A model generated the notes under the pieces. That model was not told the DNA's origin. It saw only the letters and a program-made list of their open reading frames with translations, and ran no database searches. Of a DNA stretch of 64,000 nt, positions 13,845-45,455 are shown piece after piece. Every line of letters starts with the position of its first letter. Positions within the stretch are counted from its first letter, which is position 1. Source of the stretch: Alloascoidea hylecoeti (taxonomy: Eukaryota). The stretch covers positions 248,001 through 312,000 of the forward strand of contig BCKZ01000004.1 of NCBI GenBank assembly GCA_001600815.1, in the 5' to 3' direction. A program made the translations under genes and the position numbers.

Positions 13845-14105
13845 ATGCCAAAGGAAGGCGTTGTTTATTACGATGAAGATGGTAAAGTTCCATATGATTA
13901 TATAGCTATTATCGATGCAGGATCAAGTGGTTCTCGAATCTATATCTATAATTGGCCTGAAAAAACCGTCAAACCTAAGCTATTAGGATTGCGGGATGCT
14001 CATGGTGACGATGATGATGATGATGATGATGATGACGACAACGATGATGAAGATGAAGATGAAAATGAAGATGAAGGTGAAAATCATAGTGATAGTGATG
14101 ATAAA

Positions 14106-14155
<50 letters not shown>

Positions 14156-23700: not shown

Positions 23701-26700
23701 ATTTGCTGCGATGACCTCTAACTTTATAACTTTATTTTTTACCATATTATATATTTGTGTGGGTTTATGTAGTAAGAGTGAAAGATAGCTTATAATGTCT
23801 ATAGTTTTCCATATCTCTTGACATCAAAATATATTTTTAACATTTGCATACATATTCATATTATTATAAGAGAATTCTCTAAATACGAATTGTGTTGCGT
23901 GAAATGTCTTAGTAAATATTGGTTATTTGTTTGAAATATTCAAGTTTGGTTTTAAGGTTAGAATAATCGAGGTTAATGGAACTCCATAAATGTTTTATTT
24001 ATACAACATATTTGTTTTGATCTCATTATTTACCAATTTAGTGTTGTAATGAGTTTTCCATAATAGTATTAGAATAGTAAAATATTAGACTATATAAAGA
24101 TTAGATATTTCCTACTTATAATAAATTAACTGAGAAGATATTGATTTTTCCAAACAGATACTTATATTACTATTACCACAAAAATGGACCTCGAGAGCTA
24201 TATTATAACAACTTTCTGAAACAAGGCAAGGACCTGTGATGAAAGGCGAAAATGTAATTCTATGTGTGATTACAAGCTAAAAGAGGAACCCCAACCCTTA
24301 AGAAAGAGCTGCCCTAACCGGGGATTATTATTATCATCACCAGCTAAATTTAAATACACACGATTATACATTTTACAATTGCAATTGCAAACTTAGGTAT
24401 ATTTAGCTGAAAATTCAAATTAAGTTTATACCTATCATATCAGCAACGAATTACACTATAATTGAGTTTATAATTAACTGAGAATTGCACCATATTATAT
24501 ATTGTTGAAAATTATACGAACATTAAAATACGAACATCTTCGTATAATGATACACCCAGCTATAATAGAGAAAGGGACTGTAAAAATGCATGTGCACATT
24601 TGAATTTACGACTTTATTTAATGAATAAATTTATGATTATTCCTCCGGTTTTATAAAGGCCTTTAAAGCTTCAATTTCTGTCTTCTATTGCTCCTGTGCC
24701 TCTCTTATTAAATTAAAGTTTTCAAATATATCGTTTGTGTTGCTTGTCCATGAGAGCAAGCGAGTCTCCGGTAGAATTATTACTTGATCTGATACGGTAC
24801 AATTTCTTTATATTGATTCTCTGTAAAATTAATATTAATCTTTATATAAAACTAAACAGAAAACAAAAAACAGCTGTCGTATAGTATTAAGTATCAGAGA
24901 TCTCTGTAACTTGTAATTGAATCCATAATATCAGATCAGATGAATTAGGATTTAGGAGAAGACACTCAATTGCAATACTAAAACATCGGATATAGATTAT
25001 CCTATCATTATCCGAAGAGTCTATTAAAATTTAGCTTTAATGAATTGAACTTATCGCTATTCTTTGTATCTGTTATCGAGATTAAATCTAATTGAAACGC
25101 TAACGATATTAATATATTGTTTCCAAAATATAAAGCAGCTCTTCTGCATTTAATACTTGTCCTCTGAATTTGTAAGTAATCTTCATGATCAAATGTAAAT
25201 ATATCTATCATTTGTGATCGAAAATTGAAATTGATACTTTTGCCATATTCGCGCTTTTCGGATATTTCGTTATCCGTATACGGAAACGTATTCTAATTTT
25301 GTTTATAATCTTAAGCTGTATAGAAACATATTTATATGAAAAGTTTAAATTGATTAATTAAAATATTAATATTTAATATTAATAATATATATAATATTAT
25401 ATTATATACCATCCATCATAACATTGCACTGCAACACCGTTAAGTAAGACACACTTTTATTCAGGATATTTTAAAAATAAAACAATTGAGAGGACCTAAT
25501 AGAGTACTATAACTATGGATGAAAATGACCGACGTGGCAGTACTAGTGGTCGTAGAAGTTTTGTAATATAATGTGATATTAGGTCTCAATTGTAATTCTT
25601 GCTAAGTTGAATTTACAAAGTTTCGATTTCTAAAAATTCAGTTAATTAACACATTAATACTAATTATATATACAATATTCTACTAACCGGAAGATATATC
25701 GATATCTTTGATTGATTAATATTACAATTGTAAGTTTGTTTATAACCATCATTTGCAGATTGACATTTGGCGGGCGAGTGGTTCTATGGTACGGTAACTA
25801 TATAGTCATCCGAACCCCAAACTGGCCTATACGCCAAGATAGGCTTATAGTAGTACACCCTATACCTAATAATATATTAATTTTTGAATAAAGCATATTA
25901 TTATTATATTTATTGGCATTTTAATTAAATTACTATACTATACCTAGGTATATAAATTTAATTATAAGGTTAATCCGGTTGAATTAATATAACTGTATAG
26001 TCTATATAGTATTTGATACTCGACTCAAGCTCGGTTATATCGGCCAGTTAAATATATATATAAGGGCCTTGTCCTTATACGTATACCATATATAGTACGT
26101 ATATAACATACTTACCAATATAGTTAGCTATAATACTTAATCTGGCCATATAGAGGGGGCATAAATATATCTTATATATATATATTTGTTAAAAATATTA
26201 TCCATTGTTTCCAAATTGTTTCACTTACTTTATAATTATAAATTTAGTTCCTTAATTTTAAATTTAAGCCACATACATCAATAAAAAAATGCAATTGCAA
26301 GAGCCAAGGTTATATAATTAAAGATTAATCAATTGCAATTAGTTATAATTATACAATCAGAAATTCAGAATTAACATTTGAATTTGACCATTCTCGAATT
26401 CATTTAATTCTAATTCGATCTTTTCGGAAATCTGCAGGTTTTTAACCGGAAAAAAAATCTGAGCAAAAATTTATGAAATATTAATATTATAATGAGACAA
26501 TTGCACACAATCAATTTAAATTTTTTTTTATCCTACAGTAATATTGTTATATAAGCTTATAAAGCTAAACTGATATTGGAGGTTGGAGCATAATTGTATA
26601 TATGTTTTAAGGGCCTTAATGTCCCGATTATATATCCTAGCCATAGGGCATCGATATTTGGTTGTAACTGTAAGCTTATAAAGTGCATGATAGATCAGGT

Positions 26701-28225
26701 TACAATTATGGATACCTGCCACGGAAATGTTGCAGTTAAAGCCTTACGAGCTTCACGTCAGCTTAGATTGAATCGTTGTAATTAGGTATAATTATTAATA
26801 TATTATTATTGGTAATTATAAAGACAATATAAAATTTTATCAAATCTATAAATCTATAGCTATTTCGTTGTAATTAATGTTAATTGACATTGACACCAAC
26901 ATTGAAATTGATTACCTTTCGGATGTAGGAACCAGTACTGGTATGAAATTTAGATCATGATATAATGCAGTGATATCTTGATGATAATATTTTATTTAGA
27001 GTACTCTTTTATAATCTTCCATCAACTAAGAATATAAAGCTTTAGACTAGACAATACAAAATAATTCCGTCGCCTGCAAAAAACGATAATCATCAATTTT
27101 GTGTTTTAATTATTGCATGTGATAAGAATCCTTTTTCAGAGAAACGCTTTTGGAGTATGAAAAATGATTAGTTTGAAATGTCAATTAGTTTCTGGGCAAA
27201 AGAAATATATCTAGAAAATAAAGATGAGTTGATTCCGCTTCATGAATCTCAGTTATTTAACATATTATTAGATATCTATATTAAATCATAAATATAGTAT
27301 TTCTACTTTGAATTCGCCATTTTGGACGAATAATTTCGTCATAGTAGTATGTGTATTTCCGACATGATAATTAAAAAAAATTAAGTCCCCTATAAACCCA
27401 TATTTCGTCTTTCTATTTGTCACATGAATAAACCTACTTTCAGCGCTGACGAGTGAAAAGTATGTTGCTTGGGTGGCAAAGAGTAGAATCTGTGGATGTT
27501 TGTTAATCATTACATACTAGAGTGAATATTAGCTTCAAAGTGATAAATATTTCGCTACAATGTTCAACATAGTTAGTCAAACAGAAGACGCATATTAGTG
27601 TCCATATGACAAAATATTTTGAAGAAAAAAACGATAGACAGTGGTTAAAATAAAATTGGTCAACCACATTTGTGACTATGAGTGATAGAAGAGTAAATTC
27701 TGGTAGAATTATATAGTAAATAATAGCTAAATGATGTTATTAATCTCAAACGGTTTGATCCTCTTAATCTCAAGCGAGTTTTCTTAAACTCCTCTGACTG
27801 ATATTTTAGTTTCTTACCGGTACGGTATTTGGTTATTTCATTTTATAATAATAGCTCTAGATATTGATCTTATATTTAAGACTATTAATACACTTAATTA
27901 CTGTTTGATAAGGCTTCCGAATTTGAAATGAAAGTAGTTTAATTCTGTCATAATTAAAAGTGTAATATGCATATAATTATAGTATTACTATCATCTTCAG
28001 CTTAAATTATTATACATGCATGTGCAAAACTAGATCTATACATGTATGTAGTGTATTGTTTAAAGGGATGTGATACTGGTGTATAATAAATTGTATAATT
28101 CAAATGATAAAACTTCTATATGCTAATTGCTAAAAGACCAACTTAATTTACGTACAGTCAACTGGTATCAGAATCTTGAGACAAAAAAACAAAAAAAGTA
28201 AAGCATCGAAAGTATTTCCTTATAG

Positions 28226-28859
28226 TTATTCGTCAATTTCTTCGTATCTTTGCATCAAAAGCCGTTTATACTCTTTTGGGTTCTCATCCCATAATTGAGC
28301 AGCTCTATAGAATAACTACCGTTAGTATAAACAACATTAGAAAAAAACAGCATGAATTTTGCGATGAACTTACTGAGCATTTAGAGGACTACTGTTATTA
28401 GCCTCTTCCAGTAAAGATTGTAAAGATAATAAGAGAGTTTGGACGTTATAAACGGCAGACCATTTGTCCTTTAAAATATCTAAGCAGATATTACCAGACA
28501 TATCAACATTAGGATGCCACATTGGACTGACGAATTTCACTGTTGGCGCTTTATATGGGTAATTATGTGGAAATGATAGTGATAGCTTAAATGTCAGACC
28601 TTCGTAATAAGTACCTTCGGGTCCTGTGATGGTGCCTGTCCACTCCAACATGTTGTCATCAGAAACTGGAAACGCGCTTACACCTGGAGAGTTTGACATC
28701 TATTGTTTGATGATTAGAATGGTTTCATTTACAAGAATATTAATGTCAGGCACTTACCATCAATTGAACCAGCTCACTTTGGAGCCTCTTAGATACAGAA
28801 TGGCTGTCTGAGCTATGGTTTGCTATAGATGGAGCGGAGTTTGTGTTTTGAGATTCCAT
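28226..28859 (-). CDS. UBC11: Ubiquitin-conjugating enzyme E2-C (UBE2C/Ubc11 type)
   Basis: Exons 28758-28859, 28374-28699, 28226-28304; both introns GTAAGT..TAG, the second with a perfect TACTAAC. Protein [25 protein letters not shown]...[25 protein letters not shown]...SPLNAQAAQLWD. Confidence 0.93.
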
Positions 28860-29085: not shown

Positions 29086-29667
29086 TCATTTAGGAATTGC
29101 TCTCAATAACTTTTGAGAAAGAACAAATCCATACGAAGCCAAACTACCAAATGTGATCAGATTCACTAACATACTTCCACCATGGACTTGGCCAAAGGTC
29201 TTGTTTAGATCTTTTCTTGCTGGCGTTAAAGGTTGATTTTCAACAGGTTTGCCTTCCTTTTTATCAAGATCATGTCTCCTTTCTTTCAATTTCACTGTCC
29301 ATGGAAGCAATACCGCTAGGTTCAGTAAACTGGTGCCACTGGCAACTCCCAATGCTACTTTGGCAAAGCAAGCACCTGCTCCAAATTGTGGCAAAGTGAG
29401 GAACAAGATTGGTGATGCCACTGATTGAAGGAGAAAATAGTTTTTAAATATGTGAGATTGAAGTTCCGAAAAGCTTTCCAATGGCAGAACCTTATAGGCA
29501 ACAATACCCGCGTAGAAGGATTGATAGGTTGTGGTACCAAAACTAAAGATTTCCAATTGGTTAATGATTATACCATATAATTTAGGAGCGGGTTTTACTT
29601 ACACAAGCGAATAAAGCAAAAGATGCAGAGGTGCTGTCGACTTAAGAGTTGAGATAAGAAGAGTCAT
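29086..29667 (-). CDS. TMEM205/DUF4149-family membrane protein
   Basis: Exons 29603-29667 and 29086-29542 (intron GTAAGT..CATTAAC..TAG); HLLLYSLVFGTTTYQSFYAGIVAYKVLP..F..LQ..IF..YF, NL..L.P.T and FGQVHGGSMLVNL motifs. Confidence 0.85.
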
Positions 29668-32097
29668 AATATATCAAGTATAGTTACAATTTATATGAGA
29701 AGTTCCAATTGTCGTTCTTTATATTAATACTGCTGATAATATAAAGTTCTGAAAACTGTGGAGTGAGAAAAGCCGAAATTTAAAGTGTTATTAATCAGCT
29801 GACTCTATTCTCTTGTTAATATGTAGAACGAAGTTGTCGACACAGCTCAAACGAGACTTACGCTCGGATTTGTTAATATGAAAGGAGATGAAAAAAGATT
29901 CAGGAGATATATCTGTTACCAAGATTTGAATGAGCTGTTACAAGACTTGTAAATACTTATGGTAGTCGTCAGACGTGTCCAACTAAAGATCAGCCATAAC
30001 GTTTATTATATTAATTAATAGTAGGCTGGTAGCATATTGTAAATTACTTTTTATTTATCAGATATCAAATATTTAATGACAACAAGCCGGGTGATATATT
30101 TCGACAGATTGAAACCCAATTATTCAACAACTTTTCGCGTAGAAAACTATATATTAGGTTTAAGTGTTCCAATTAACCAACTCATGATGTTCCTAAGGGC
30201 CCAAGATCGTAGTTTGAATATGATGTAATTATAAAGCTTTTCTTTTAGTCATTTAACTGTTCTGTATGTAATAAAAAAATTTTAAGCTTCTAATCAATTA
30301 TTACATCTTTTTGTTTAATCTATAACCGAAAAGAATCGAATATAATAATAAATGTGTGTTTTAATTGAATATATTTCTTTTGTGACACCTTTAACGCTAA
30401 TGCGATTCTGATAATTACCGGTGTATTACTGTCCTCTTGACTTTTTTCTGAATTTTTAAAAAGGTAAAGATCAGTTTTCTAAAAAACTCCAGACTAATCC
30501 TAAGTATAATATAATTATAGTAACTAGAGCAAAGCATTAAATCAATTGCATGCTCAAGTATAATGTAGCCAGAATAAATATAATACAGAAAATAATCAAC
30601 TGCAAGCTTAGGTGGGAGAACTCATGATCACGAATGAAATAATATTCAATTGCAATTTCAGTGATGGCAGTTGCGCCCATATCTAACAAATGTATGAAAG
30701 AGTTCCAATATCTCTTAGCAGTGCAGTTATTAATATTTCGTAAATATCTTTTAAAATTCCTTGGAATATAAAGTCGTTCGGCTTCTGCTATTGGTAGTGT
30801 GCTGCTCATTCTTTTCTTGATCTACTGATGATTATTTTGTAAAATGAAAAAATAAAGTACTAATTATATCTTGTTATAGCTGGTGGCAGTCGCTTTATAA
30901 TAATTGATTTATCTGGTCTCTCTTGAAATCTTTAATTCAACATTTCATGTGTAGTCTATTAATAAAAAAATTTTAAATTAAAGGTTTGGCTGTAGCTAGG
31001 ATTTTTACCAGAAAAAAATTGTGCCGAAATAGTAACAACAGATAAAAAAAGAAAGTAGAAGATGAATTTTAGGTCTGAAAACATCAAATAGTGTATGTTT
31101 ACCTTTAAACAGGATCCGGAGGGTGATTTAAAGAAAAAATTTTGTCTCCCTTTTCCACAGTAATCATATTAGATAATGTTAAATTCATTATAGGATCCAT
31201 TGCAAGTTCTAATATAGCATATTTAATAGATTGTATTTACAATTTTTAGAGTTAGCTTCTCCTTATTGCAATTGCATAATCTTCAGTCCATTTTTGATAG
31301 TACATAGTAAAAATAGTTATAATGGCGTGTATTATACTTATACCTAGGCCTTATGGTAATAGATGTATAATTTATGTTATTACCAAATGTGGTGATTACC
31401 TTATATGCCGGTAGGTGATAATAATAAATGTATATTATTTTGTTATTACCAAATATAATAACGTTAACGAGTGCATCATTACATTATATAGCTCCATCAC
31501 TTTTTTTACGTAAAAAAGTTAATAAGTAAATTAAACCCATGGTTTAATAATTCATCAACCCTTTTAACCTTGTGATATAAAACTCCTTCTGCTTTCCTAA
31601 TTATAGTAACTGCATGAACATTCTCAGATTTAAGAGATTTGTGTGGATTTATTTAATCAGCTGTCTACAGCACAATTAAGTATGAGAAGTGACATTTAAA
31701 GAGTATAGTTCCTAGACTATAAACAGTCTTATATATCCTAAATAATAATTAATCAACTACTCTATCTTTTCACAAACTACAATTGACTTAATAGATCAGC
31801 GGATTGTTTTAGCGAAATGGCACTTATTGATTTATCTAGGGAACAAGAATCATAAGTTATACATCGTGATTTCACATAATACCTTAAATAAGTATAAGTT
31901 TAAGTTCATTAAACCTGGAACAGGAGTGTGTGAGTATGTAAAGATCTATTATATTCGTTGCGGCCATAGAAAGCACCGACCTCAATCTCAACAGTCTACA
32001 AACAAAATGAGAAATCATACGAAAAAGGAACAGAGAATATATTTTTAAAACATTAATTTGGTTTGATACACCGCGTACCGATGTAAAAGATTACTTA

Positions 32098-34158
32098 TTA
32101 ATGGCGCACCAATGAGCCATATACCCCTTTAAAGACTTTGGCTAATGAACGCCGACCATCCCAAAGTGGGAAAAGTCCAACAGCTATGAAAGTCATATAT
32201 ATCCAAAAGATAGAAACCGTCGTCCAACCCTCGAAAAAAGCCTTGTTCCATATCCAATTTCTATATAGGGGTAATGGCCAAACCACCCATGTTAGTAAAA
32301 GAACAAAAACCGTAAATCCATAAGCTATTTTCATCCAGTAATTGATTAGTTTCAAATTTTTTTCTTCTTCGGATAAATCATGACTTATATCACTATTGTT
32401 TTGATGATTAGAGTCCTCATCTTCATAAGAATCCACAGCTTTAATATTTCCAGTGGCTACTTCTTTTCTTTCTTTTTCCGACACTTCACTAAATACAACA
32501 AAATCTGTCTGTCGATCAGCTTTGTCTTCCTCTTCTTCTTCCTTTTGCACCAGTTTCGCTTCTTGTAACTTTGACCAGTCGAACTTACTTGGTTTAATGA
32601 AACTTATAACGAAAGTTAGTATAGCTGGCACAAATATTGCTACTAATCCCCCATATAAACATGGTAATTGTTCTCCTGTTGACACGATAGTTATCTCTCC
32701 ATAAAATCCGTGGGCTGTTCCTAGCCATGTTGCAAGTCCTAATACTAAACCTACAATTGGTGATATTAATGCTGCAGCCTCTGTTTGTCCATCCCACACG
32801 ATTGCCAAAACAAGCGGTACAACTCCGGGACAGATCAACATAGAATAAAAGTATCCCATCCAAGTCATATCAACACCAACATAATGTAACATTACAGAAA
32901 ACCCTGCAGAAAAAAGACCAAAAAAAACAACTCCAAAATGTGACACTGCAATTAATTGCTTATTGGTGGCCTCTGGCTTGATATATGTTCGATATATATC
33001 AAAAGACATGATACTACTAACAGAAATCATTTGAGCACTGACAGTTGAAGTGCAAGCAAGAAAAAGGCCAAGAAGTAGTCCACCACAAGCACCGTTTCCT
33101 AATAAAGCCTTTAACGTATATGGAAGAACATACCCACTTGAAATCTCAGAAGCAGTCATTTGCCTTGGATAAGTCGGAAAGATTGGAAGATCCTCTACTA
33201 CAATTGATGCCAAACCACATACAGTACCAAGAGGCCAAACAACAGCAAAAATACATACAGCACCAATAATGTAACCAGGAACAGTGGCTTTGACACTAGC
33301 AGAAAATGTTTTCTGCCAAAATGAGGAATCCATTACTGTCAATCCAAAATCACCAACAGAATGAATAATTCCAAAAATAATAGCTCCCTTAGATTTAAAA
33401 GTCATGACTGAACCTTGATAATTTCCGTCAATATATCGATCTCCATCATGCTTCATGACAAGATCATACAATCCAGATAAACCATTAATCTTATCAGATG
33501 CAAGAACAGCGGTTGAGAAATAGCATAGTAAAATAACTGCAATGAAAGTATGGACATAATCAGTCAAGAAAGTACTTTTTAAACCACCAACTGCCGTATA
33601 TAATATGACACCGAAAGGAATTAACATTGTGGAAGCAACAATATGAATGTTAGTTAGAGCTGTTATAGCACCTGCTGTAGCAAGAATCATTGAAGAACAG
33701 GATAACAAATTGTTGACGAGGCATAGAAATAGATATAATATATGTCCTGGCTTACCATATCTTAACTTGATGATTTCCAAGCAAGTATGTCCGTTTGCTA
33801 TTTTCTTTTTAGACTCGATTCCTACAACCGCCATAACACAGATGTGGACTGATAGACCAGCCGCATACCAATAAGCACTTGCTATTCCATAATTATAGAC
33901 CATTGTAACACACCACAAATATTCCGAAGCCCACATCCAAGATGAGAAAACAGCGGATGCCGTAAGGCCTATCCCTACTGATCTGTTTGCAACCATGAAC
34001 ATTTCAGTGGATTGTGAATTTTCATTTAAATATTTATCCATTGCTTTTGTTGCACCTATTATTCCGAGTGCAAATAAGGCAGCAACACCGATAAGGACAC
34101 CATACCCAGCACCTTGAGACAATATGAAGGGTACAGCTTCAACTGTAGAATTAGTCAT
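32098..34158 (-). CDS. DUR3: DUR3-family sodium:solute symporter (urea/polyamine transporter-like)
   Basis: LSQGAGYG, EMFMVANRSVGIGLTASAVFSSWMWA, YTAVGGLKSTFLTDYVHT, SFDIYRTYIKPEAT and WPLPLY motifs; many TM segments. May be a paralog rather than the true urea transporter. Confidence 0.88.
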   Translation of the reverse strand: MTNSTVEAVPFILSQGAGYGVLIGVAALFALGIIGATKAMDKYLNENSQSTEMFMVANRSVGIGLTASAVFSSWMWASEYLWCVTMVYNYGIASAYWYAAGLSVHICVMAVVGIESKKKIANGHTCLEIIKLRYGKPGHILYLFLCLVNNLLSCSSMILATAGAITALTNIHIVASTMLIPFGVILYTAVGGLKSTFLTDYVHTFIAVILLCYFSTAVLASDKINGLSGLYDLVMKHDGDRYIDGNYQGSVMTFKSKGAIIFGIIHSVGDFGLTVMDSSFWQKTFSASVKATVPGYIIGAVCIFAVVWPLGTVCGLASIVVEDLPIFPTYPRQMTASEISSGYVLPYTLKALLGNGACGGLLLGLFLACTSTVSAQMISVSSIMSFDIYRTYIKPEATNKQLIAVSHFGVVFFGLFSAGFSVMLHYVGVDMTWMGYFYSMLICPGVVPLVLAIVWDGQTEAAALISPIVGLVLGLATWLGTAHGFYGEITIVSTGEQLPCLYGGLVAIFVPAILTFVISFIKPSKFDWSKLQEAKLVQKEEEEEDKADRQTDFVVFSEVSEKERKEVATGNIKAVDSYEDEDSNHQNNSDISHDLSEEEKNLKLINYWMKIAYGFTVFVLLLTWVVWPLPLYRNWIWNKAFFEGWTTVSIFWIYMTFIAVGLFPLWDGRRSLAKVFKGVYGSLVRH

Positions 34159-34685
34159 TTGTCTAGTTAATTGTAAGCTTAACGATAAGTTAAAATAGTA
34201 AGCAACTAATTGCAGTCGTGATTATAAACAACATTTGTTGAAATGATCTTAGTTTATAAAGAGAACTCATATCAACTCAAGTATATTTTTGGGATTGAAA
34301 ATTAAAGTATAATTTTTCCTATTTGCATCTACAATTGTAAAATCTTTATTGATATGGCATCATCCTGATTTTCGTAAATATCAATAGATCTCACATTGTC
34401 GCATAATTTATTGTCAACCTACTAACAACGTATCTCAATGTTACAGGATTCTGATTATCAGACATGAATTCACACATTGTGTTTTCCCCGTTCTGATATA
34501 TAAATTCTTACCGGAATATGTTTGATAATCACGACATACACTCTAGAAATGACAAATTGAAACTGGCGGTAATACCCAAATTCAGCTGCAATATTGTCTT
34601 ATAATCTCATTAAAAACATATACATGCTTAACGAGGTAATATATATCGATCTGTATGTAGTACGTATTTAAGACTCAAATAATAG

Positions 34686-34883
34686 AAGAACCATCCCTTA
34701 CGTACCCCGTCATGAAGAACATTCATCAAATTTTCATATTTTCAGGAGTTGATTAAGGCATTTTAAAAAAACAGAGCAAAAGATCAATTCTCTAATACCC
34801 TGGACTCCTGGAGGATACAAGCTGCTTTGTTTCAAGAATGGAATAAATTTGCTTATGAAGAAATCGTATGCATATGTGGATAA
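34686..34883 (+). mobile_element. Possible Tc1/mariner transposase C-terminal relic
   Basis: Stop-interrupted frame ...ELIKAF*KNRAKDQFSNTLDSWRIQAALFQEWNKFAYEEI resembles the post-catalytic 'K.R...AAL.EEW.KI..E.I' helix of Tc1-type DDE transposases; no TIRs seen. Confidence 0.25.
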
Positions 34884-35625
34884 TTAACAATTTAACATAC
34901 AGGAGCTCTACATATTCCACGCATTTAAATATCTGAAAATTCAATTCGAACTCAATATTACCCGATTGATTATTGAGTCACTTTGAGTGTATAAAAATAT
35001 AAGTGAAAAAGTGTCACACAACTACATTCAACCTCAACTTAATACCTATGAATATACAATTACTTTGCTTATATAGAATGATATAAACAATACTGTAGCT
35101 ACATAATACTATACCTATAATTTATAACTAGACCTACATATCCTTTATAATATTCATTCGATTTATCACAGATGAAGTTTGTTTTCACCGATTCATTCGT
35201 TGTCACGCTAACTGCTTGTCTCCCATCAGCAGTCGTGCAACACATCGAACCAACCACTGGACAGTGGAGGTAAACATAAACAATAGTACAATACTAAACA
35301 ATGACATCCATAATACTCCATATGTTACCAATCACAGCCGCTTCATGCAATGTTGAGTGAACTGGTTTATATGTGGGTTTACGTATATGTATACGCTTAA
35401 AAATTGACATTTCTTTCGTGGGTGCTTCGTATAAGCCTACTGGTTCTTAGACATGCACAAAATAAATAGAAGTTATAAAAAACTTTACATACAACCTTCT
35501 TATTTCTGGTATAAGTTATATGAACTTATATTTATAATATAGGTATAGGATAGAGATTTATATCTCATAATATTATATTTAAACATATTTGTTGGTAACC
35601 AGTACCCCAACTAATAGCTATGTTT

Positions 35626-37199
35626 TCAATTCAATAAAGATTTCTCGAACGATTCTCGGTCAACACCAGCTTTCCATCTATATTTATGTGCATGATGAGA
35701 AGGGCTTATAAAGCTCCCTTCTGGGCCTTTAACTCCAGTAAGATTCTCTCTAAAAGTACCACCTGGCACGGCATAATCACCCCATGATAAACCTCTGCTT
35801 CTCAATTCTGGAAGCAAAAGTTCGACAATATCCTCAAATGATTTTGGTGCAACGGCATAAGTGAAATTAAAACCATCAATATTTGCAACGTCGACCCATC
35901 TTTCGAGCTGATCTGCTACAGATTTTGGTGTTCCAACAACAACTGGTCCAAGACCTCCGATTGTAATTTGTTTAGCTATGACATTCCTATTCCATTCGCC
36001 TTGTCCAGGAACAGCTTTACTCCAGTTTTCAACCGCAGCTCTCATAGAATTTGAGGAAACTTTTCCTAATGGTTCTTTTTCACCATATTTAGATAAATCG
36101 ATACCAGTCCAACCACCAAAAAGTGCCTGCGCACCTTCAAGATCTCCATACTGCTGATAATCTTCAAATTTTGCTTTTGCTTCTTCTTCAGTCTCTCCGA
36201 TAACAGTTGTAATCAATGCAACGAACTTAATTGAGTCACGTTCTCTTCCATACTTTTCAACGGCAATTTTTCTAATGGCCTCAACTTTTGGTTTCAAATC
36301 CTCAGGAGAAAAAGAGATGACAAATATAACCTCTGCATGTTTAGCACCAAAATCTTTACCGACACTAGATGTTCCTGCTTGTAGTAAAACGGGTAATCTT
36401 TGTGGGGAAGGCTCAGTAATAGCGGGGCCGGGAACGTCAAAATATTTACCTTTATGGTTGATCTCTCTAATTTTTGATGGATCCGTAAAAATTCCTCGCT
36501 CTCTGTCTAGAATTACAGCATCATCACTCCAAGATGATAGTAGAAGCTTATATACAACATCCACGAATTCATCTGCCTTAACATATCTCTCATCATGTTC
36601 CAGTAAAGGTTCTCCGTTCAATAAATTTCTTGCGGCACTGTCTTGATAAGATGTGACAATATTCCAACCAACTCTTCCCTTCGTTAGATGGTCAAGCGTT
36701 GCAATTCTCCTAGCAAGATGATATGGCTGCTCACTGATAGTACTGAAAGTGATACCAAAAGATAGAGATTTTGTAACGGCAGCCATTGCGGAAACTACTG
36801 CACTAGGTTCATTGACAGGCCATTGAGCCCCAGCTGTTGCAGCTGGTACAAGATTTCTTGGTCCCTTATAAACATCGTATCCACCTTTAAGTTTTATATG
36901 TTAATATCATTATAATTGGAATATATAGTATGAGAATGTATAGGTGAAAATGAAGAATTCATGATCAAGATCAATGTTGCAATAAAAAACTTACCTAAAA
37001 CATCAGCGAGGAAGACAGCGTTGAATTTTCCTTTTTCTAGTAGCTTGGCCAGTTCTACCCAATAATCAATATCCTTATAGTCCCTAGAATGATCATCTGG
37101 ATGTTTCCAGAGACCCGGGCATTGTAGGCCACTACATCCCATAGCGAATGCATTAATGATAAGATGTTTCTTTGGTTCAGCTTCAGTAGTAGATGCCAT
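35626..37199 (-). CDS. FMNH2-dependent luciferase-like monooxygenase, NtaA/SnaA/DszA family
   Basis: Exons 36995-37199 and 35626-36884 (intron GTAAGT..TATTAAC..AAG). GLWKHP, LAKLLEKGKFNAVFLADVLGGYDVY, PYHLARRIATLDHLTKGRVGWNIVTS, PSPQRLPVLLQAGTS, DGFN and LLPELRSRGL motifs. Confidence 0.93.
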
Positions 37200-38133
37200 T
37201 TTTGTGTGATTGAAATAATATGACGGACACAATTGATAAATACCCAGGAAATAGTGAAATTTATAATCAATAACTATAAGATGATCATTAAAAGAAGATC
37301 ATTAATATTCATTATGAGATGATTTTGAACGAAATATACATGCACACTTACTATAGTGTTGTAATTAGTTATAATAGGAATAATCATACGGTTAACATTA
37401 TAATTATTATTTAAACTTAACATTTTAATCTGCATGATTTATTAGGAAAAAAAGATATATGCAGTGCGTATGCCCCACTGCAAATTACATAATAAGCGCC
37501 AATATTTAATCTACTGTCTCATATAAAGCTGAAATTAATGTATTCACAAGTTTATATGAACTTTTCGTCATCGCATGTGGAATTACAAGCGAAACAAATC
37601 ATTTAGTCAATTATATATTGTTACCTCATACGGTATATAAAAAACCGTGGGTAATCGGAATATGTTTTTAGATAACAATTGTTAATAAGATTCAATTTAG
37701 ATTAATGATTTATTGCGAGATTATTCGATATATCCAAATATAACTGGTTAATTCAATATATTGTGTGATATATTAAAGCAAAACCCGTTAATTAATAGCT
37801 GGTTCAATATCACGAAACACAACAGGATCTTGCAATTGTAACTCTTTAGAACAAAAAAGCTATCACAATCTGGTTATGAAGAACCACATTTATAGATTTG
37901 CAACTTATTGAAACAAGTATATCAATAGGGTTCTTCAAGTTCATAAATTTAAGAAGAATATAAAGGAGATTGAGATTATCTTAAAAGTTAGGAATTATTT
38001 AAAATTTATTGGTCATCGACAGCTACCTATAAATTCAAATATTAATTTCTCTTATTGCTATAAAATATATAATATAAGCTTACTCTAATTTGATCGCATT
38101 TTCTCAACCAGTTAACTTCATCAGAAATCTACT

Positions 38134-39345
38134 ATGTCGATAGGACAAGAATCAACTGGAGATACAATAACAGAAAGTATTTCAAAGACTCATATCCTTT
38201 CCGATCTTAGCATTAAAGATGATCGAACTTGTGAACTAGTGGAAGAATTAAATTTTGTTGATTCCAGTGATGATTCCGATAATGGTGACCAGGTGCAGAC
38301 AGCTCTAATTCTAGAAAACAAATCAGGTCCTTACACTGTCGATAAGAGTTACCCAATACCCGACTTGAAACCAAATGAAATATTGATAAAAATTCAAGTG
38401 ATAGGTCTGAATCCTCTTGACTGGAAAAGTGTTCGTTATGGATTTGGAATTCATTCAACTCCTTGGATCAATGGACGAGAAGGCTCTGGGACTATCGTAA
38501 AAACTTCAGAAGGAGTCAATGGTTTGGAGGTTGGGGATAACGTTTTTATTTGCAGTACAAGTTACAGAGATATCAGAACAAGCACTTTCCAAGAGTATGT
38601 GATAGCAGATTATAGACTTGTTTGGAAAATTCCTTCTGAAATTGATTTGCTAGAAGCTGCTACTCTTGGGGTGGGCCTCGTTACAGCTGGAGTTGTGATT
38701 TTCAATAATTTCAAGTTGTTAAGTTTAGATCATGGGTCAGCTACAGTGAATGAAAATTTAAAGCCTGAAACCAAAAGTGGAGGAAATACCATTCTCATAT
38801 GGGGTGGCTCAAGTGTGGTCGGGATGTATCTAATCCAACTTATAGTGGCTTTGGGTAATAGAGTAATTACAGTTGCTGGTAGTAAGAATAAGGACTACCT
38901 CAAATCGCTCGGGGCTGATGTTGTCATTGATAGACACCAAGATTCAAAAAAAATTTTAGAAGATATAAGGCTCCATTCATCTGAAGGAATAACTCATGCT
39001 GTGGATACTGTTTCGCGTGAAACTTCAGAACTAGTTCTAGTGGCTTTGAAACAAAATAAACCTAATGTTGATAATTACAAACAGAAAGTTGCTTTTCTGG
39101 TATCAAAACCAAAACAAGTTCCTTCCGATATTGATATACAGGATGTTGCAATAAAATCATTTCATGAAGATACTTCATTTGGAACCAAACTTGTTGAGCA
39201 CACCACTGAACTTTTGAGAGAAGGAAAAGTTTATCCTGTACGCTATAAATTATTTAATGAAGGTTTGGAAGATGGAATTAATAAAGGCTTGGAATATTTA
39301 GAGACCTTTGGGGCAAGTGGTGAAAAGATCATTGTAAAGGTATAG
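38134..39345 (+). CDS. Zinc-independent MDR oxidoreductase (enoyl reductase/quinone oxidoreductase, ToxD/YNL134C-like)
   Basis: IGLNPLDWK, FQEY, ILIWGGSSVVG NADPH motif, LKSLGADVVID and SGEKIIV; no catalytic Zn cysteines. Confidence 0.88.
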   Translation: MSIGQESTGDTITESISKTHILSDLSIKDDRTCELVEELNFVDSSDDSDNGDQVQTALILENKSGPYTVDKSYPIPDLKPNEILIKIQVIGLNPLDWKSVRYGFGIHSTPWINGREGSGTIVKTSEGVNGLEVGDNVFICSTSYRDIRTSTFQEYVIADYRLVWKIPSEIDLLEAATLGVGLVTAGVVIFNNFKLLSLDHGSATVNENLKPETKSGGNTILIWGGSSVVGMYLIQLIVALGNRVITVAGSKNKDYLKSLGADVVIDRHQDSKKILEDIRLHSSEGITHAVDTVSRETSELVLVALKQNKPNVDNYKQKVAFLVSKPKQVPSDIDIQDVAIKSFHEDTSFGTKLVEHTTELLREGKVYPVRYKLFNEGLEDGINKGLEYLETFGASGEKIIVKV

Positions 39346-39504
39346 TCTATATAAAATTGAAACAGATATATCTGTATAATTTATAGTATCAAATACTAAT
39401 AAATAATATTAGAGAAGATCACTAAACGATTGATATCCATTTTGTTCGATTCAAATTATAAGCTCGTTATTATAAGATTTAAGCGCTCACATGCAACTAA
39501 CCAG

Positions 39505-39732
39505 AGTGACCATATATTAAGTGTTAAATGGCCGAATATCTATGCGTTAAGTGGTCCAATAATAAGCTGTGTGTGGTCGAACGTTTCATGCAATAAATTG
39601 TCGAACCTCTACACATGATATGGCCAAATAGTTTGTGCATATTGATACATCACGCGATTGAATTATTCATTTAAAATTTGGGTGCATATTTACTAAAAGG
39701 TGGACGAATATAGGCCAACAAGTGGTCGATAT
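39505..39732 (+). repeat. Degenerate tandem array, ~22-24 bp period, core TGGYCGAA
   Basis: Cores at 39507, 39529, 39552, 39574, 39598, 39621, then 39701 and 39723. Confidence 0.6.
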
Positions 39733-40183
39733 TAACGCAGACTGCCGTATGCAGTAACTAATTAAAAATATTTGGCGCGTGTGAAGATTATAAAAGTTGG
39801 TTGTCAGAAGTCAGATCAGATCTGAACTCTTCAACCACAATAATTATGATTAAGTAATTATTTTTATTATTATTCAATTTCAGTTAGCGCTATGATCTAA
39901 ATTAAATCGTGTTCAATATTATTTTTACCTCGATTCCGTTAAGTGTAGTTAATTTATAACTATCATGAATCAATTCTACGAATATTATACTGTAATATGT
40001 GTATTTACGGTAGGAATATATAAACTTATAAGTTATATAATTATGTTTATACCATATAGTTGAGTATATTTCAAGATCATAAAAATAAGAAGCAATGTCA
40101 ATTGCAATATTTAATATATATTTATAAATGGTATAAGTTATATGGTGAACTTGGATATCTACCACTTATAAATACCAGCTTAG

Positions 40184-41926
40184 CTATATTTTTCTGGATG
40201 CAAAAAACATCATGCTTATTTTCGATAATAAGGTGTTACTAAAATAAGTTCTATTAACATAGTCAAGTTCACCATCAATGATAGACATTTTAGCATCATT
40301 TGACCCTGAATTTAGCGCCGTTACTTTTTGCTCTGAATCTGAAAAATTCTTTTTATTAATCAACCACAATGATTCCAGTCCTTCATCTTCAATATTTGAT
40401 TCATTTGCACTTATTAAATATTGTTTCTTTTCATTCAGAATGTTTAAATGCTTATTTAATAATCTTTTGACTTTCCAAAATCTTAGAAATAATAGTGGTA
40501 TAACTCCAACAATATAAACTAATCCAACCAATACCTGTACATCACGATATTCTCTGCTGCCTGAATATTCTGGTTTCCTAATTTTCATTGCAATAACTTC
40601 TCCAAAAACTGATGGGACACCAGCAAAAACAGAAGCAACTGCAAATGCTGATGATAACAATTTCAACGGCACAGAATCTGCAATCATTGGAGGATAATTA
40701 ACAAATGTAACCCCCACCATTAAACCATTAATAAAACCATAAGCAGCCAAACTACTAAAAGTTGTTGCAGGCATCCAGAAAATAAAACAAAGAAGTCCAA
40801 TAATTGAAGTTAGAGTAACAGTTACATTTAGTCTACCGATTTTATCAGATATAAACCCAATTGAAGGGCGACCAACAATCTGTCCTGCACTTAACAAAGC
40901 TAAAATAATGGAACCTTTAGATTGAGATAAACCAATTGCAGTTGCATATGATGCCAATGAAAATTGAAAAACACAAAATCCAATCATTGTTAAAGCAACC
41001 CAAGCACAAATCATTAACACAGGGAAAATTTTTAAAACTGAGGAATCAAAAAGTTTTAATTTTTTCTTTGGTTCATTATTTTTAATCCTTAACTTTTCAT
41101 TATGATCATTTATAATTTTGCTTCTTGAACGAATAAAAGTAACACAAATTAATACCAAAACAATATTCGAGATACCCATATATCTTAAAGCCCATGGTGT
41201 ATCACCAGTTTTATTTATAATTGCTTGGGAAGCTAAATTATAAACTAATCCTCCAACCCCCATTCCACAAGCAGATATACCATTTGCTAATGACCTATGT
41301 TTTTGAAACCATTGAGGTAAAATGATAGTTGGAGGAACATAAATGAACCCCAAACCAATTGAAACGGCAAGCCCTTCACTTAAATATAACTGCCAGATCG
41401 TTTTTGCAAAACTAGCACAAATAAAACCCGTATTCTGTATTACCATACCAATTAGTAGAGTTGGGTGCATGCCAATCTTAATATGTACCATTGTAATCAA
41501 TGGTGTAATAATAAGCGCTACTCCAGTAGCTATACCGCCAATGTAAGCATAGTCTAAGGACGTTGCGTTTTCAAACTTAGATGTGATTAAATAATGATTC
41601 AGAAACACACCATATGAAGCAATACCACCCCAAGCAGCGAAACCAGCAAGAAAAGCACAAAAAGCACAAACCCATCCGTAACCGCCATCAGGAGGTATTG
41701 TTGGGTCATTTTCCAGATTTATTGAATTTGATTCTTCATCGTTAGAATCAGAATTCTGGCAAAATCCTTGATCATGATCAGAAACAGCATTATTAGGAGC
41801 AGGGCAGTTGCTAATATCCATATCTGTTTTCTCATCCTTTCTGGAAGTTACGATTACTAATGGACCATTTGTAGCAGGATCTTCGCCATTTTCACTCTTC
41901 AAATCACCGCCATTAAGTTTAACCAT
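40184..41926 (-). CDS. MFS monocarboxylate-porter homolog (Mch2/Esbp6-like)
   Basis: PPDGGYGW, ASFAKTIWQLYL, LPQWFQKHRSLANGI and GRPSIGFISDKIGRLN motifs; ~12 TM; first ATG at 41926. Confidence 0.9.
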   Translation of the reverse strand: MVKLNGGDLKSENGEDPATNGPLVIVTSRKDEKTDMDISNCPAPNNAVSDHDQGFCQNSDSNDEESNSINLENDPTIPPDGGYGWVCAFCAFLAGFAAWGGIASYGVFLNHYLITSKFENATSLDYAYIGGIATGVALIITPLITMVHIKIGMHPTLLIGMVIQNTGFICASFAKTIWQLYLSEGLAVSIGLGFIYVPPTIILPQWFQKHRSLANGISACGMGVGGLVYNLASQAIINKTGDTPWALRYMGISNIVLVLICVTFIRSRSKIINDHNEKLRIKNNEPKKKLKLFDSSVLKIFPVLMICAWVALTMIGFCVFQFSLASYATAIGLSQSKGSIILALLSAGQIVGRPSIGFISDKIGRLNVTVTLTSIIGLLCFIFWMPATTFSSLAAYGFINGLMVGVTFVNYPPMIADSVPLKLLSSAFAVASVFAGVPSVFGEVIAMKIRKPEYSGSREYRDVQVLVGLVYIVGVIPLLFLRFWKVKRLLNKHLNILNEKKQYLISANESNIEDEGLESLWLINKKNFSDSEQKVTALNSGSNDAKMSIIDGELDYVNRTYFSNTLLSKISMMFFASRKI

Positions 41927-44900
41927 TGGTCCTTTCTTTTGTGTAAATAATTTAAAATCGCTCACCAATTTATTAATATTGTTTTGAGCTGTGGAGCCAA
42001 TTATAGCTATATATATATTATGCTCGTTGATAATGTTTATTAGTCATGTGGAACCATTCGGAGGTTTACTGCATCAATACCGAGATGGAAAACCCCAATA
42101 ATTCAAGAAGTTTTCGTGAAAAAAACAAACTCAATTTCCATCACCTATGTTCAGTTATTACGAAGTAAGTTGTTAAAAACTAATAAACTAAAGAACTAGC
42201 TTATTAGACAGAAATCAATTGTAAGCTCTTCTCTCAATTAAACCCCTTTAACACAGGATTTCTTACTGGATAGTCTACATATATATGTTTCTTCTGTTTT
42301 TTTTCCTTTTATTTTCCTTGCTTCTTTAAAACTACCCAACCCAAAAGCGGAAGATTCGTTTTATATTAGGAAACCTAAATGCCTTTGCGCATAATATTCA
42401 ACACATGATGGATATCACTCTCTTAGTCCTCCACATTAATTACTTTCCGCATAATTAATATATTACCAATTCATACGATCAACACAACACACTATTCATA
42501 GAAAAGAGAGTAAATACATTTCCCTCACAATGACCACGTGAAATCTTAGTATTTTCCTTAAAGCCTCTCCGGAGAACTACGTACATCTCTTTCAACACGG
42601 TGAAAATGAATGCGAAATTGAAAGTTGCAATTGGAGTTTCTATAAGCTAAAAGCTAATACCATTATTCATTATGCACGAGTTGTCTTAATATGCACAAAC
42701 ACAAATCGTACATATTTGGCATACACCTCAGCCTCTCAGGTTGTAAATTTGTAATTAATTCCAGCCGTGAAAGGACATGTAAACCTTATAATTACGGATG
42801 GAAACTTTGATTGGAAAGACCATTTACTTGTAGGACGGGAATGGAGTCATAGACACCCTATTATAATTATTGCTATTCAACCAGTTCTACCAGAAAACAT
42901 AGTTTATCCACTCTTACTTGCCTAAAGCACAACTAATATTATAATGGATTGTCAAAATGTATGAATTGGTTACAATATTATCAAATTCTTCCGATGTCAC
43001 CACAGTCTTTGGTGGACACATTGGAAGTGGTTTTCAGTTCAAGGGGTTTGTGTCCCTGACGCCATCACTTAAAAGTTGTAGTGAGCAGGTGATCTAATTC
43101 TTTTCAAAGTGTAGTGATGGTTTTGGTGACCTTTTCTGATAACTGGTTTCTTAGAGTGTTGACACAACGAAGTTTGAGTGATTACCTCGTTATTGAGCAA
43201 GTATTTCGATTGACATCTCCTCAATTGACTTCGTATGCTCATCGTAGGAATTACTTCAATACTTCATCTAATGGAAGATGAACTTGGTCATATATATCAG
43301 GATTCTAATTCCCCTTTGAATTGGTGACTCCAAATTTTCTTTCAAGTCCGAAGGTGCGGTGTAGTCGTAAGATGGGCGCAGTATTCGCTTCCTGGAATTA
43401 CTCCTCTCTTTCACTTTATCTTGGTGGCAATGGGGTTGCAGGAACACTATAATATAGCACTAGCTACCGAGTAATTGATCTTCTTTAAAAGATTAGGAAG
43501 AATTAATTACCAAAATTACCGCGGCTAAGATTACATAAATTATCATCTAGTTTTACGTAATCTAGAACAGTCATTTCACTTAATTTCGGCCACCTTTTGA
43601 ACTAAACAATTAAATCAAATGGCCCAAACTTCTCCAACTTACTACAAGCATTGATTGGATTGGAGAGGAATTTTATAATTACTACCATCACTTTAAATCT
43701 AGATTGGAACAAAATACAACTGTGGTTGACCCATATGAGCAGTAATTAAGAATAGAGCTTAATCAATGCAACACCAAGATCATGGAGTCACAAAAGGAAA
43801 TTGGCAGTTTGTTAACTTCCAAGAATCAAACTGAAGTGGGGTAAAGATAAGATATTAAAAAGGATTAGATGTTCAAACGAACCAAATCTGTAATTAATTC
43901 GAAAAGGGGTTTTCTTTAGGATCTATTTTAGAGATATCATCCTTAGTTTTAAATTCCGTAGAATTCCGTTTACAAACATCATGAGAAAAACGGAAAGGGT
44001 GACGGCAAGGGTGATGATCACTGCCCAGTGACTACACTTATGAGTATAGTCAATGGTCATAAATATTTCCGGAATGATTCTTGACCTATAGGCCTATAAA
44101 ATGTAGGTAGTTACTAATTATCAGTTACAAGCCTTGAAACATACCCTATTTACCCACAATATATTCCGAGAAGCTCGGACTACAAGCGGATCAAAAAAAC
44201 TACACAATTAAAAGGCTGTCGACCACGGACGCTGGACCACAAGCGCTAACAGCAGTTCACAACTCTCACAAACTTCGAAATGTAACGCAACGATGAATTG
44301 ACTACCAGTCTATGAACTCCCAGGAGTATCCTTTATCTAGCTTAATGTGTACCAAAGAACAAAAACAAAAACAAAAAAAAGGTGTTAGACTAAAATATCA
44401 GATCTGTTAAAAATGTCACACCAAAGATACTAAAGAGATGACTTGTATTAATATGTAAGGGGCAATAAAACGACACTCTTACATGACCAAGAAGTATTAT
44501 AAATAGTTTACTAATCATCATTGTATGAACTTATTAAGATATACCATATGGCAACTTTGTGGGTATAAACTTATAATCACTTATATAATTTAATTTTATT
44601 CTCTGTTCGATATGTTGTTCTGCTCAAAAAAAAACCATTATAAGGCCTTATATATGTAGGTCTCATCACGAAGTGCAAAAGTATTATTTGTTTAATAAGT
44701 TAGATATTGCTAGTGTAGATTAGCCTTATTAAATTTATTGGTTTTAAATTGAACTGTTAAAATTATAATAGTTAAATAAACAAGATTATTAAAAATCTAA
44801 AATTTGAATTCACAGATTTTTAGGTTTGTTAATTATTTGGGCCTCTTAATTTTATATCATTATAATGTGTGGTAAATATGGCTAGAATGACCCATTGACC

Positions 44901-45455
44901 ATGGATCCATGATTAATGTAGTTATTCAGGCAAGAAGGCTAGTTACTGGCTGGCAGTAGCTGCCAATTACAACGTGCCAACAGGATGTTTTTGAAGGCCA
45001 TCTGCAACTAATGTAATAAGGTCTTACCTATTCATAGGGTGAGTTCCTTCTGTTGTCGATCCAACACTAGGACAACCAGAGAGGTTACTGGTAGCTTGTC
45101 CCCCCTTATTTTCTCAGTTAATTATAAATAACGATATAAGTTTTAATTAGTTATAATTATTTAGCACCGTTCTTAACAGTGACTGGTCTTTTGGCATTGG
45201 CACGTACTCTTTATTATGTCATAGCAGAAATCTAAGTGACACTGAATACTGAATTCCCCTATATACTCCATATATTTTATAAACATCCCCTCTTCGGACC
45301 CGTATAGCTATCGTTATACTTCCTCTATCTGCCATACCTCCAAACTAGCCGCCTCTTTCGTCATCTCAGCCATACTGGCCTTTGGAGCTCAATCCGACCA
45401 CTCGGAATTAAAATAAATATTATTATACATAAAAACACATAGAATTGTTTCTGTG

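Follow-up and report, generated by a model that had tools for sequence, protein, structure and literature searches.

A conserved fungal pairing of a luciferase-like monooxygenase with a zinc-free MDR protein, often beside a DUR3-like permease, in Alloascoidea hylecoeti: a candidate organosulfur-scavenging module

The organization of four consecutive genes was analyzed in a window of 64,000 nucleotides of Alloascoidea hylecoeti (contig BCKZ01000004.1, positions 248,001 to 312,000; coordinates below are those of this window). They encode a permease of the DUR3 family, a luciferase-like monooxygenase, a protein of the medium-chain dehydrogenase/reductase family (MDR) and a transporter of the major facilitator superfamily (MFS). 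The original prediction, made from the sequence alone, had placed the monooxygenase and MDR genes head-to-head over about 930 bp with a transporter gene on each side, and had read the four as a catabolic unit for an amine or organosulfur compound. The open reading frames (ORFs) match these positions and the spacer measures 934 bp. The window DNA is AT-rich (about 28-39% G+C per 2 kb) and its genes are of budding-yeast type. The features are distributed as follows:

32098..34158, minus strand: DUR3-family permease (sodium:solute symporter family, SSF), 686 amino acids (aa), an ORF with PF00474 and TIGR00813 matches
34159..35625: permease promoter, the spacer from the monooxygenase stop to the permease start; AACCAGTT at 35360, AACCAGT at 35439 and 35597
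35626..36884, minus strand: monooxygenase exon 2, stop codon included; TIGR03860 match
36885..36994, minus strand: monooxygenase intron, 110 nt, with GTAAGT...TATTAAC...AG signals
36995..37199, minus strand: monooxygenase exon 1; ATG at 37199, last base being base 1 of a split Gly codon
37200..38133: shared divergent promoter, 934 bp; AACCAGTT at 37742 (minus) and 38106 (plus), AAACCGTGG at 37642
38134..39345, plus strand: zinc-free MDR of quinone-oxidoreductase/enoyl-reductase type, 403 aa; ADH_N and ADH_zinc_N matches
40184..41926, minus strand: MFS transporter resembling monocarboxylate transporters (MCT), 580 aa; MFS_1 match; candidate member of the unit
41927..43200: MFS upstream region; AACCAGTT at 42879 (plus) and 43141 (minus), TCACGTG at 42535, ACTGTGG at 43000 (minus)

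CTG codons are rare (just 4 in 1,507 codons of the three genes checked), and one of them encodes the nearly invariant Leu92 of the MDR. Because three of the four sit at Leu/Ile/Val columns of homologue alignments, CTG is probably read as leucine, and the yeast would lie outside the CUG-Ser group. In agreement with the original prediction, no flavin reductase gene was found in the window: neither PF01613 nor PF03358 is matched by the ATG ORFs of at least 150 aa (15 scanned, plus the four cluster genes), nor by 36 further stop-to-stop ORFs of at least 75 aa. The list of such ORFs holds 37 entries; the remaining one (36897-37298) overlaps exon 1 and was scanned with the cluster genes.

The spliced monooxygenase frame encodes 487 aa with no internal stop. 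Its splice junction, FLADVLGGYDVYKGPRN, agrees with the family consensus and with an intronless relative on a yeast-like contig (L004, 43% G+C), which is 53% identical, and 58% identical to the exon-1 peptide. The exon-2 part scores 419.3 bits against TIGR03860, the NtaA/DmoA family (cut-off 279.7), over model positions 60-422 of 422; the intronless relative scores 443.3 bits over 1-417. The closest solved structures are the dimethyl sulfide (DMS) monooxygenase DmoA (6ak1, 380 bits) and LadA (3b9n, 346 bits), both matched over nearly the whole exon-2 part. DszA (5tlc, 210 bits), NtaA (3sdo, 170 bits) and the EDTA monooxygenase EmoA (122 bits) are weaker matches. The NtaA/DszA label originally given to the gene therefore does not name its closest type: NtaA/NtaB and DszA belong to the same broad family, are matched far more weakly and are labels of homologues, not orthologues. 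DmoA and LadA fall under the same family model as the yeast enzyme, which is known by sequence alone and is probably dependent on reduced flavin mononucleotide (FMNH2). Its best named homologues are just 57-64% identical; they occur in Babjeviella, Debaryomyces, Scheffersomyces, Pachysolen and moulds, often in multiple copies per genome.

The permease matches PF00474 with 75.8 bits over residues 54-470 and TIGR00813 with 186.3 bits (cut-off 184), which places it among sodium:solute symporters. Its best matches reach 65% identity; Dur32p, 53% identical, is the sole C. albicans group among the 120 matches listed. In the DUR3 family, clade I Dur3 transports urea and polyamines and clade V Dur31 transports thiamin, while Dur32, Dur7 and Dur35 form clade IV and are described as uncharacterised (Donovan et al. 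2018, PMC5997356). The DUR3-type importer of the original prediction stands at the level of the family, with clade IV Dur32 as nearest named C. albicans relative by pairwise match among those listed, rather than Dur3 proper. The MFS protein (MFS_1, 91.1 bits, cut-off 33.4) had been called MCH-type, after a yeast family similar to monocarboxylate porters. It does resemble monocarboxylate transporters, its best PDB matches being MCT10, MCT8 and MCT2 (70-83 bits), but its best NCBIfam matches, also monocarboxylate transporters, stay below the curated cut-offs (TIGR00892, 104.1 against 586.1 bits; NF049980, 112.7 against 320).

The MDR protein is a member of a sharply delimited family of fungal proteins, marked by the invariant motifs GLNPxDWK, PWxNGRE, STSYRDxRTSTFQ and IKxFHED. 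In alcohol dehydrogenases the zinc-binding His lies in a G-H-E motif and a Cys ligand in the first strand-loop. Here the catalytic-zinc ligand positions hold GLNPLDW and NGREGSG, and N93 and R115 are invariant in 24/24 family sequences. A zinc-dependent alcohol dehydrogenase was considered and rejected, G-R-E replacing G-H-E in all 24. The Rossmann glycine motif WGGSSVVG is conserved, and the protein has the two-domain MDR fold of the zinc-free class. Its predicted model (pLDDT 82.4, pTM 0.82, the first ~51 residues being predicted disordered) has LovC, Zta1, FaEO (an enone oxidoreductase), VAT-1 and zeta-crystallin as top Foldseek matches; LovC (3b6z) reaches 76 bits, Foldseek E 1e-25 and TM 0.72/0.82, and Zta1 (3qwa) is also among the best. 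LovC-type trans-acting enoyl reductases and zeta-crystallin quinone oxidoreductases such as Zta1, which are zinc-free NADP(H)-bound MDRs, are thus the best matches in both sequence and fold. In contrast with them, the window protein, 22-23% identical, has its own invariant motifs, and its family is paired in genomes with a luciferase-like monooxygenase instead of a polyketide synthase. No flavin-reductase family was matched by the MDR in Pfam/NCBIfam-type model scans.

The distribution of these genes was then analyzed in other fungi. Metagenome contigs were scanned with an alignment of the MDR family, giving 80 loci on which the window proteins were placed by tblastn. Loci with MDR DNA at least 90% identical were merged into 59 organism groups: 42 of family type and 17 with a generic quinone-oxidoreductase (QOR)-like protein. 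In the generic groups the match covers query residues ~72-308 (mostly 74-268), and 13 of the 17 have at least 3 kb on both sides. A luciferase-like monooxygenase is linked to the MDR in 19 of the 42 family-type groups and in none of the 17 generic ones, so that the synteny check named in the original prediction was positive for this pair across fungi. Within the 19, an NtaA/DmoA-type gene lies within 6.1 kb in 12 groups (in 11 of them within 2 kb), the MDR is fused to a domain of the SfnG type in 11, and both arrangements are found in 4. The head-to-head order of the window recurs at L004, L008, L028, L040, L041 and L063. At L004 the cluster comprises genes for a flavin-containing monooxygenase (FMO), the luciferase-like monooxygenase, the MDR and an MFS protein. 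At L008 (7928-17476) the minus-strand monooxygenase and plus-strand MDR genes are followed by genes for a Flavin_Reduct protein (PF01613), a cytosine/purine-type permease, an alpha/beta hydrolase and a Zn2Cys6 regulator. This is the sole related locus with a canonical flavin reductase, which is absent from 9 of the 10 monooxygenase-linked loci that were ORF-scanned. On a mould contig, L041 (1229-15643), an MFS gene, the monooxygenase (minus) and MDR (plus) pair, a second MFS gene, an FMO-like gene, a third MFS gene and a second NtaA/DmoA-type monooxygenase gene lie within 15 kb.

For the DUR3 paralog the same check was only partly positive. The order permease (minus), monooxygenase (plus), MDR (plus), built from the families to which these three genes belong in the window, is found in two groups (L043-L046 and L047/L048/L050/L062). 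Permease homologues are linked to the monooxygenase at L043-L045, L048 and L050, and at L057 one stands head-to-head with the MDR. In Priceomyces carsonii the monooxygenase (PRCAT00003539001) and the permease (PRCAT00003540001) have consecutive locus tags. Equal contig size, an indirect proxy for co-location, adds further cases: monooxygenase P0076, MDR P0182 and permease P0282 each come from an 8,720-nt contig; monooxygenase and MDR share sizes of 23,055 nt (P0017/P0171) and 23,909 nt (P0038/P0199), monooxygenase and permease 4,976 nt (P0104/P0268), and MDR and permease 14,600 nt (P0179/P0254) and 28,827 nt (P0202/P0252). In [Candida] railenensis and Pachysolen all three genes are on contigs of one size, which says little at 0.86-1.75 Mb. 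No homologue of the window MFS protein was found beside the MDR homologues (0/80 loci). Of the four-gene unit first proposed, the importer, monooxygenase and MDR genes behave as a unit and the MFS gene is not a conserved member; the export step assigned to the MCH-type protein has no backing from synteny. The monooxygenase-MDR pair, often joined by a DUR3-like permease, is conserved as a module in fungi. Read most simply, the association is old and some yeast lineages later lost it.

A second type of association is the fusion of the MDR to SfnG. At 12 of the 12 loci examined (11 groups) the MDR and the SfnG-type domain share one stop-free frame, in which 37-55 residues rich in Ser and Pro link the two. 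This luciferase-like domain matches TIGR04021 (dimethylsulfone monooxygenase SfnG) with 539.8 bits (cut-off 383) and PDB 8t0u with 447 bits. An intronless fusion of 880 aa is present at L010 (106-2748). A profile-free search of 1.84 billion representatives returned one full-length fusion (P0363, 874 aa, 69% identity, aligned 1-878) and several junction-spanning fragments; for the 880-aa fusion, all scores in a protein atlas were below 0.8. The window MDR is 31% identical to the MDR part of the fusion (E 7e-48) over the whole catalytic length, with the family motifs retained. In an MDR tree of 44 rows, obtained by quick search and with SH-aLRT support only, the window protein branches just after Yarrowia in the yeast clade (97), monooxygenase-paired mould MDRs are sister to SfnG-fused mould MDRs (100), and monooxygenase-unlinked MDRs nest within a Candida/Scheffersomyces subclade. 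Pocket-lining residues are conserved across the yeast, monooxygenase-paired and SfnG-fused forms, which suggests one common substrate. The fusion mirrors the bacterial reductase-oxygenase pair SfnF-SfnG (PMC13352529) and would favour a flavin-reductase role for the MDR. A flexible tether would suit the hand-over of unstable reduced flavin more than that of a freely diffusing aldehyde. These in-frame fusions speak indirectly for the original proposal that the MDR takes the place of the missing flavin reductase; the canonical Flavin_Reduct gene at L008 counts against it.

The promoter regions were searched for regulatory motifs. CTGTGG (twice) and CACGTG (once) occur in them, all confined to the MFS upstream region. 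The 3.5 kb upstream of the MFS gene (41927-45455) contain no ORF of at least 75 aa and no tRNA, and carry TCACGTG at 42535 and ACTGTGG at 43000 (minus) and 43719 (plus). The nitrogen-related motif GATAAG is present once in 3.7 kb of cluster promoters, compared to 0.74 per kb in other non-coding DNA, and is not enriched. At L004, 5 of the 12 cores of the Met31/32 site (TGTGGC) present on the contig are found in the 1,286 bp of intergenic DNA of the cluster, with an expectation of 7.2 for the whole contig and of ~0.5 when scaled to 1,286 bp; the same intergenic DNA contains one exact AAACTGTGG. A k-mer comparison revealed, post hoc, the 8-mer AACCAGTT, of which the window has 6 copies. Five are in the three promoter regions (35360, 37742, 38106, 42879 and 43141). 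The remaining 33.9 kb of non-coding DNA have none, and the sixth (12655) is coding. Among random segment triples of the same sizes, 2 in 1000 gave an 8-mer as concentrated. AACCAGTT is absent from the L004 spacer, and we know of no factor for it. It is a candidate site and a lead for co-regulation that would include the MFS gene: this gene, not a conserved member, may be regulated together with the cluster through the shared 8-mer.

Bacterial organosulfur systems import their substrates through an ABC importer. The window permease, in contrast to the importers of SfnFG-, MsuEDC- and SsuED-type systems, is of the SSF type. In other respects these systems of Pseudomonas and Acinetobacter are the closest in design: they comprise C-S-cleaving luciferase-like FMNH2 monooxygenases, with an adjoining gene for a redox partner, and serve in sulfur starvation (PMC13352529, PMC11588060). 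The window module differs in being fungal and in having an MDR as its linked NAD(P)H enzyme instead of a reductase of SsuE/MsuE or HpaC type; in moulds the MDR is found fused to SfnG. DmoA, SfnG and MsuD/SsuD cleave methyl-sulfur compounds, formaldehyde being named as a product from DMS and methanesulfonate, and FMO-type enzymes turn DMS into dimethyl sulfoxide (DMSO) in bacteria (PMC13352529). FMO-like genes are present in the L004 and L041 clusters and an MsrA-like gene in L032. The window itself has, 30 kb away from the cluster, a gene for a 657-aa FMO-like monooxygenase (1025-2998, minus; PF00743; similar to ArsO and trimethylamine monooxygenase), and FMOs are sulfur-starvation-induced in C. 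albicans. This gene was considered as an orthologue of the L004 cluster FMO and rejected, having only short local matches to it; it is not counted in the unit.

In Candida, PF00296 monooxygenases and DUR3 paralogs of the Met4/Met32 regulon are induced by sulfur starvation (PMC11502921, PMC13170222). In C. parapsilosis four PF00296 genes are up 4- to 250-fold on Cys/Met starvation, a response lost in met4-delta, and the DUR3 paralog DUR4 has a log2 change of 3.9 in the wild type, 0.26 in met4-delta and 4.7 in met28-delta (PMC11502921). For C. albicans, each of three data sets on sulfur deprivation has DUR32, DUR7, DUR35 and DUR4 as up (PMC13170222), and the N. crassa urea transporter gene urt is up under sulfur starvation (PMC8550094). 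C. albicans mutants deleted for desulfonating oxygenases, sox1 and sox2 among them but jlp12 excepted, did not differ from the parent in growth on the sulfonates tried (PMC13170222). In contrast to the window, clustering with an MDR gene is not reported in the available parts of the Candida articles, and the window promoters are without the Met32 core. No family MDR appears among the named rows of Supplementary Data 4 of the C. parapsilosis study, a negative of low weight since the CPAR2 identifier of the orthologue was not in the query. Fungal FMNH2-dependent monooxygenases are widespread and respond to sulfur starvation. A 2018 review describes them as uncharacterised genetically and biochemically and holds that a part for fungal FMN reductases in sulfur assimilation had yet to be demonstrated; it cites Linder 2012 for the fungal monooxygenase family and promoter motifs (PMC5857272). 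By title and abstract, no publication was found on monooxygenase-MDR(-permease) linkage, on an MDR-SfnG fusion or on an MDR redox partner, and subscription papers such as Linder 2012 may bear on these points. Sulfur-regulated fungal PF00296 enzymes and DUR paralogs are thus already in print; the linkage, the fusion and the idea of an MDR partner are apparently new, which such a search does not prove.

Taken together, we favour with moderate confidence the reading of the cluster as a fungal organosulfur-scavenging module. Of the two substrate classes in the original prediction, organosulfur is the more likely and amine the disfavoured one, because DmoA is the nearest solved enzyme, the MDR is fused to SfnG elsewhere, the Candida relatives are induced by sulfur starvation and Met31/32 cores are enriched at L004. 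The Dur32-like permease would import a sulfur compound that is small, polar and uncharged; the analogy of urea-sized solutes suggests dimethylsulfone, DMSO-like and other methyl-sulfur compounds as candidates. With FMNH2 and O2 the monooxygenase would, as in the chemistry of its family, hydroxylate the carbon adjoining sulfur and split the C-S bond, which would yield a sulfur species for assimilation and an aldehyde. The MDR would serve luciferase-like monooxygenases as their NAD(P)H-dependent partner; supply of reduced flavin is its most likely task, reduction of the aldehyde the other option. A more specific proposal, which we put forward only tentatively, is that the MDR clade is the NAD(P)H:FMN reductase of fungal luciferase-like two-component monooxygenases, as divergent partner or fused to SfnG, and the first with an MDR fold, and that the adjoining Dur32-type permeases import dimethylsulfone-like compounds and not urea.

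Several observations weigh against the organosulfur reading and its reductase. LadA, an alkane hydroxylase, is almost as close to the monooxygenase as DmoA (346 and 380 bits), so C-S chemistry is not proven. The three window promoter regions contain no TGTGGC; sulfur control in this yeast is therefore putative. The Met31/32-like hint of the original prediction in the shared promoter does not hold either: the window has 15 matches to AAACTGTGG with one mismatch where 13.5 are expected, which puts AAACCGTGG at 37642 at chance level. We know of no flavin reductase with an MDR fold, nor was one found in the literature by title or abstract. The Flavin_Reduct gene adjoining the MDR at L008 means that the MDR need not be the reductase. 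The organism groups counted for linkage are related by descent and hence not independent; among the 42 of family type, 7 have no link despite at least 3 kb of flank on each side, and another 16 do not extend far enough for a verdict. The two loci with the closest MDR relatives, L001 (45%) and L002 (43%), have no monooxygenase within 10 kb. There (L001:7337-10492, L002:7952-13985) the MDR gene follows a ketoacyl synthase gene; a GDA1/CD39 gene comes after it at L002, and an RRM gene is the last one at L001. In C. metapsilosis the locus tags (002864 and 003044) are on the same contig but 180 tags apart, and in several Scheffersomyces and Spathaspora species the contigs that carry the genes differ in size, a measure which is in any case indirect.

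A GDA1/CD39 gene and an RRM gene (13845-15986 and 6827-7618) also lie in the window, 22-31 kb left of the MDR gene; they and their counterparts at L001 and L002 may be remnants of a common ancestral neighbourhood.

Among the alternatives, the one that survives best keeps the same sulfur module and makes the MDR a handler of its product, reducing an aldehyde such as formaldehyde or an enal, with FMNH2 supplied by an unlinked reductase. We regard this as possible, if rather unlikely. The nearest structures of the MDR are indeed enoyl, enone and quinone reductases (LovC, FaEO, Zta1), L008 combines monooxygenase, MDR and a PF01613 Flavin_Reduct gene, and formaldehyde is a named product of DMS and methanesulfonate cleavage (PMC13352529). 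However, the family is without the catalytic-zinc His of aldehyde/alcohol-type MDRs (G-R-E in 24/24), the pocket residues common to yeast, paired and fused forms fit one shared substrate, and the SfnG tether would benefit an unstable reduced flavin more than a diffusing aldehyde.

Catabolism of a nitrogen compound, in which a DUR3-type permease would import a solute resembling urea or polyamines and C-N bonds would be cleaved as by NtaA, is improbable. It would agree with the urea and polyamine transport of characterised DUR3-family members (PMC5997356) and with the presence of the C-N-cleaving NtaA and EDTA monooxygenase in the same family and among the PDB matches. These two enzymes nevertheless score far below DmoA (170 and 122 against 380 bits), the permease is nearest to Dur32 of an uncharacterised clade (PMC5997356), GATAAG is not enriched in the cluster promoters, and related modules carry SfnG, FMO and MsrA-type genes. 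Still less probable is the carbon catabolism or detoxification of a hydrophobic compound by LadA-like hydroxylation, an MDR redox step and MFS transport, which would suit a wood-associated yeast. LadA is the second-best solved relative (346 bits), and contigs of a wood-decay metagenome (X4) cover 30/30 bins of 31500-43500 with a sampled-word share of 0.96; yet the neighbour that is conserved encodes a DUR3-family permease, a type that serves small polar solutes, SfnG fusions and sulfur-linked genes recur as partners, and Candida members of the family answer to sulfur starvation (PMC11502921). That the four genes are mere neighbours without common function is the least probable of all: an MFS gene without syntenic counterpart (0/80 loci) and nearest MDR relatives unlinked to a monooxygenase (L001, L002) would fit it, against a monooxygenase-MDR linkage seen across yeasts and moulds (19/42 family groups, 0/17 controls), in-frame MDR-SfnG fusions, and 5 of the 6 copies of AACCAGTT lying in three promoter regions, a post hoc observation matched by 2/1000 random triples.

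The window sequence is contained in two DNA runs, X3 (from an isolate that bears the name of this organism) and the wood-decay metagenome X4. In both, second contigs are 90-95% identical to parts of the permease, monooxygenase and MDR genes (33040-33076, 36241-37148 and 38433-38676). In X3 the second, diverged monooxygenase copy has 90 letters instead of 96 inside the intron. These contigs correspond to a diverged second haplotype or to a duplicated copy of the cluster. A metatranscriptome of a related study (X8) gave no contig matching 31500-43500. Elsewhere in this otherwise gene-dense window, a region of ~7.5 kb (20800-28300) has 28-29% G+C and no Pfam match in any stop-to-stop ORF of at least 75 aa; its repeats are weak and AT-rich, and a large inverted repeat is absent. 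A regional centromere is one candidate identity, a run of small or intron-rich genes another. The right border of the region is formed by an exon of a ubiquitin-conjugating enzyme (28373-28699, minus) and a DUF4149 gene (29089-29598, minus).

The conserved trio and the MDR-SfnG fusion provide fungal luciferase-like monooxygenases with candidates for a redox partner, an importer family and a substrate class. The importer role, if true, would explain the sulfur-starvation response of "urea transporter" paralogs in Candida and Neurospora. A substrate class of dimethylsulfone/DMS type would be relevant to the cycling of sulfur in soil and wood.

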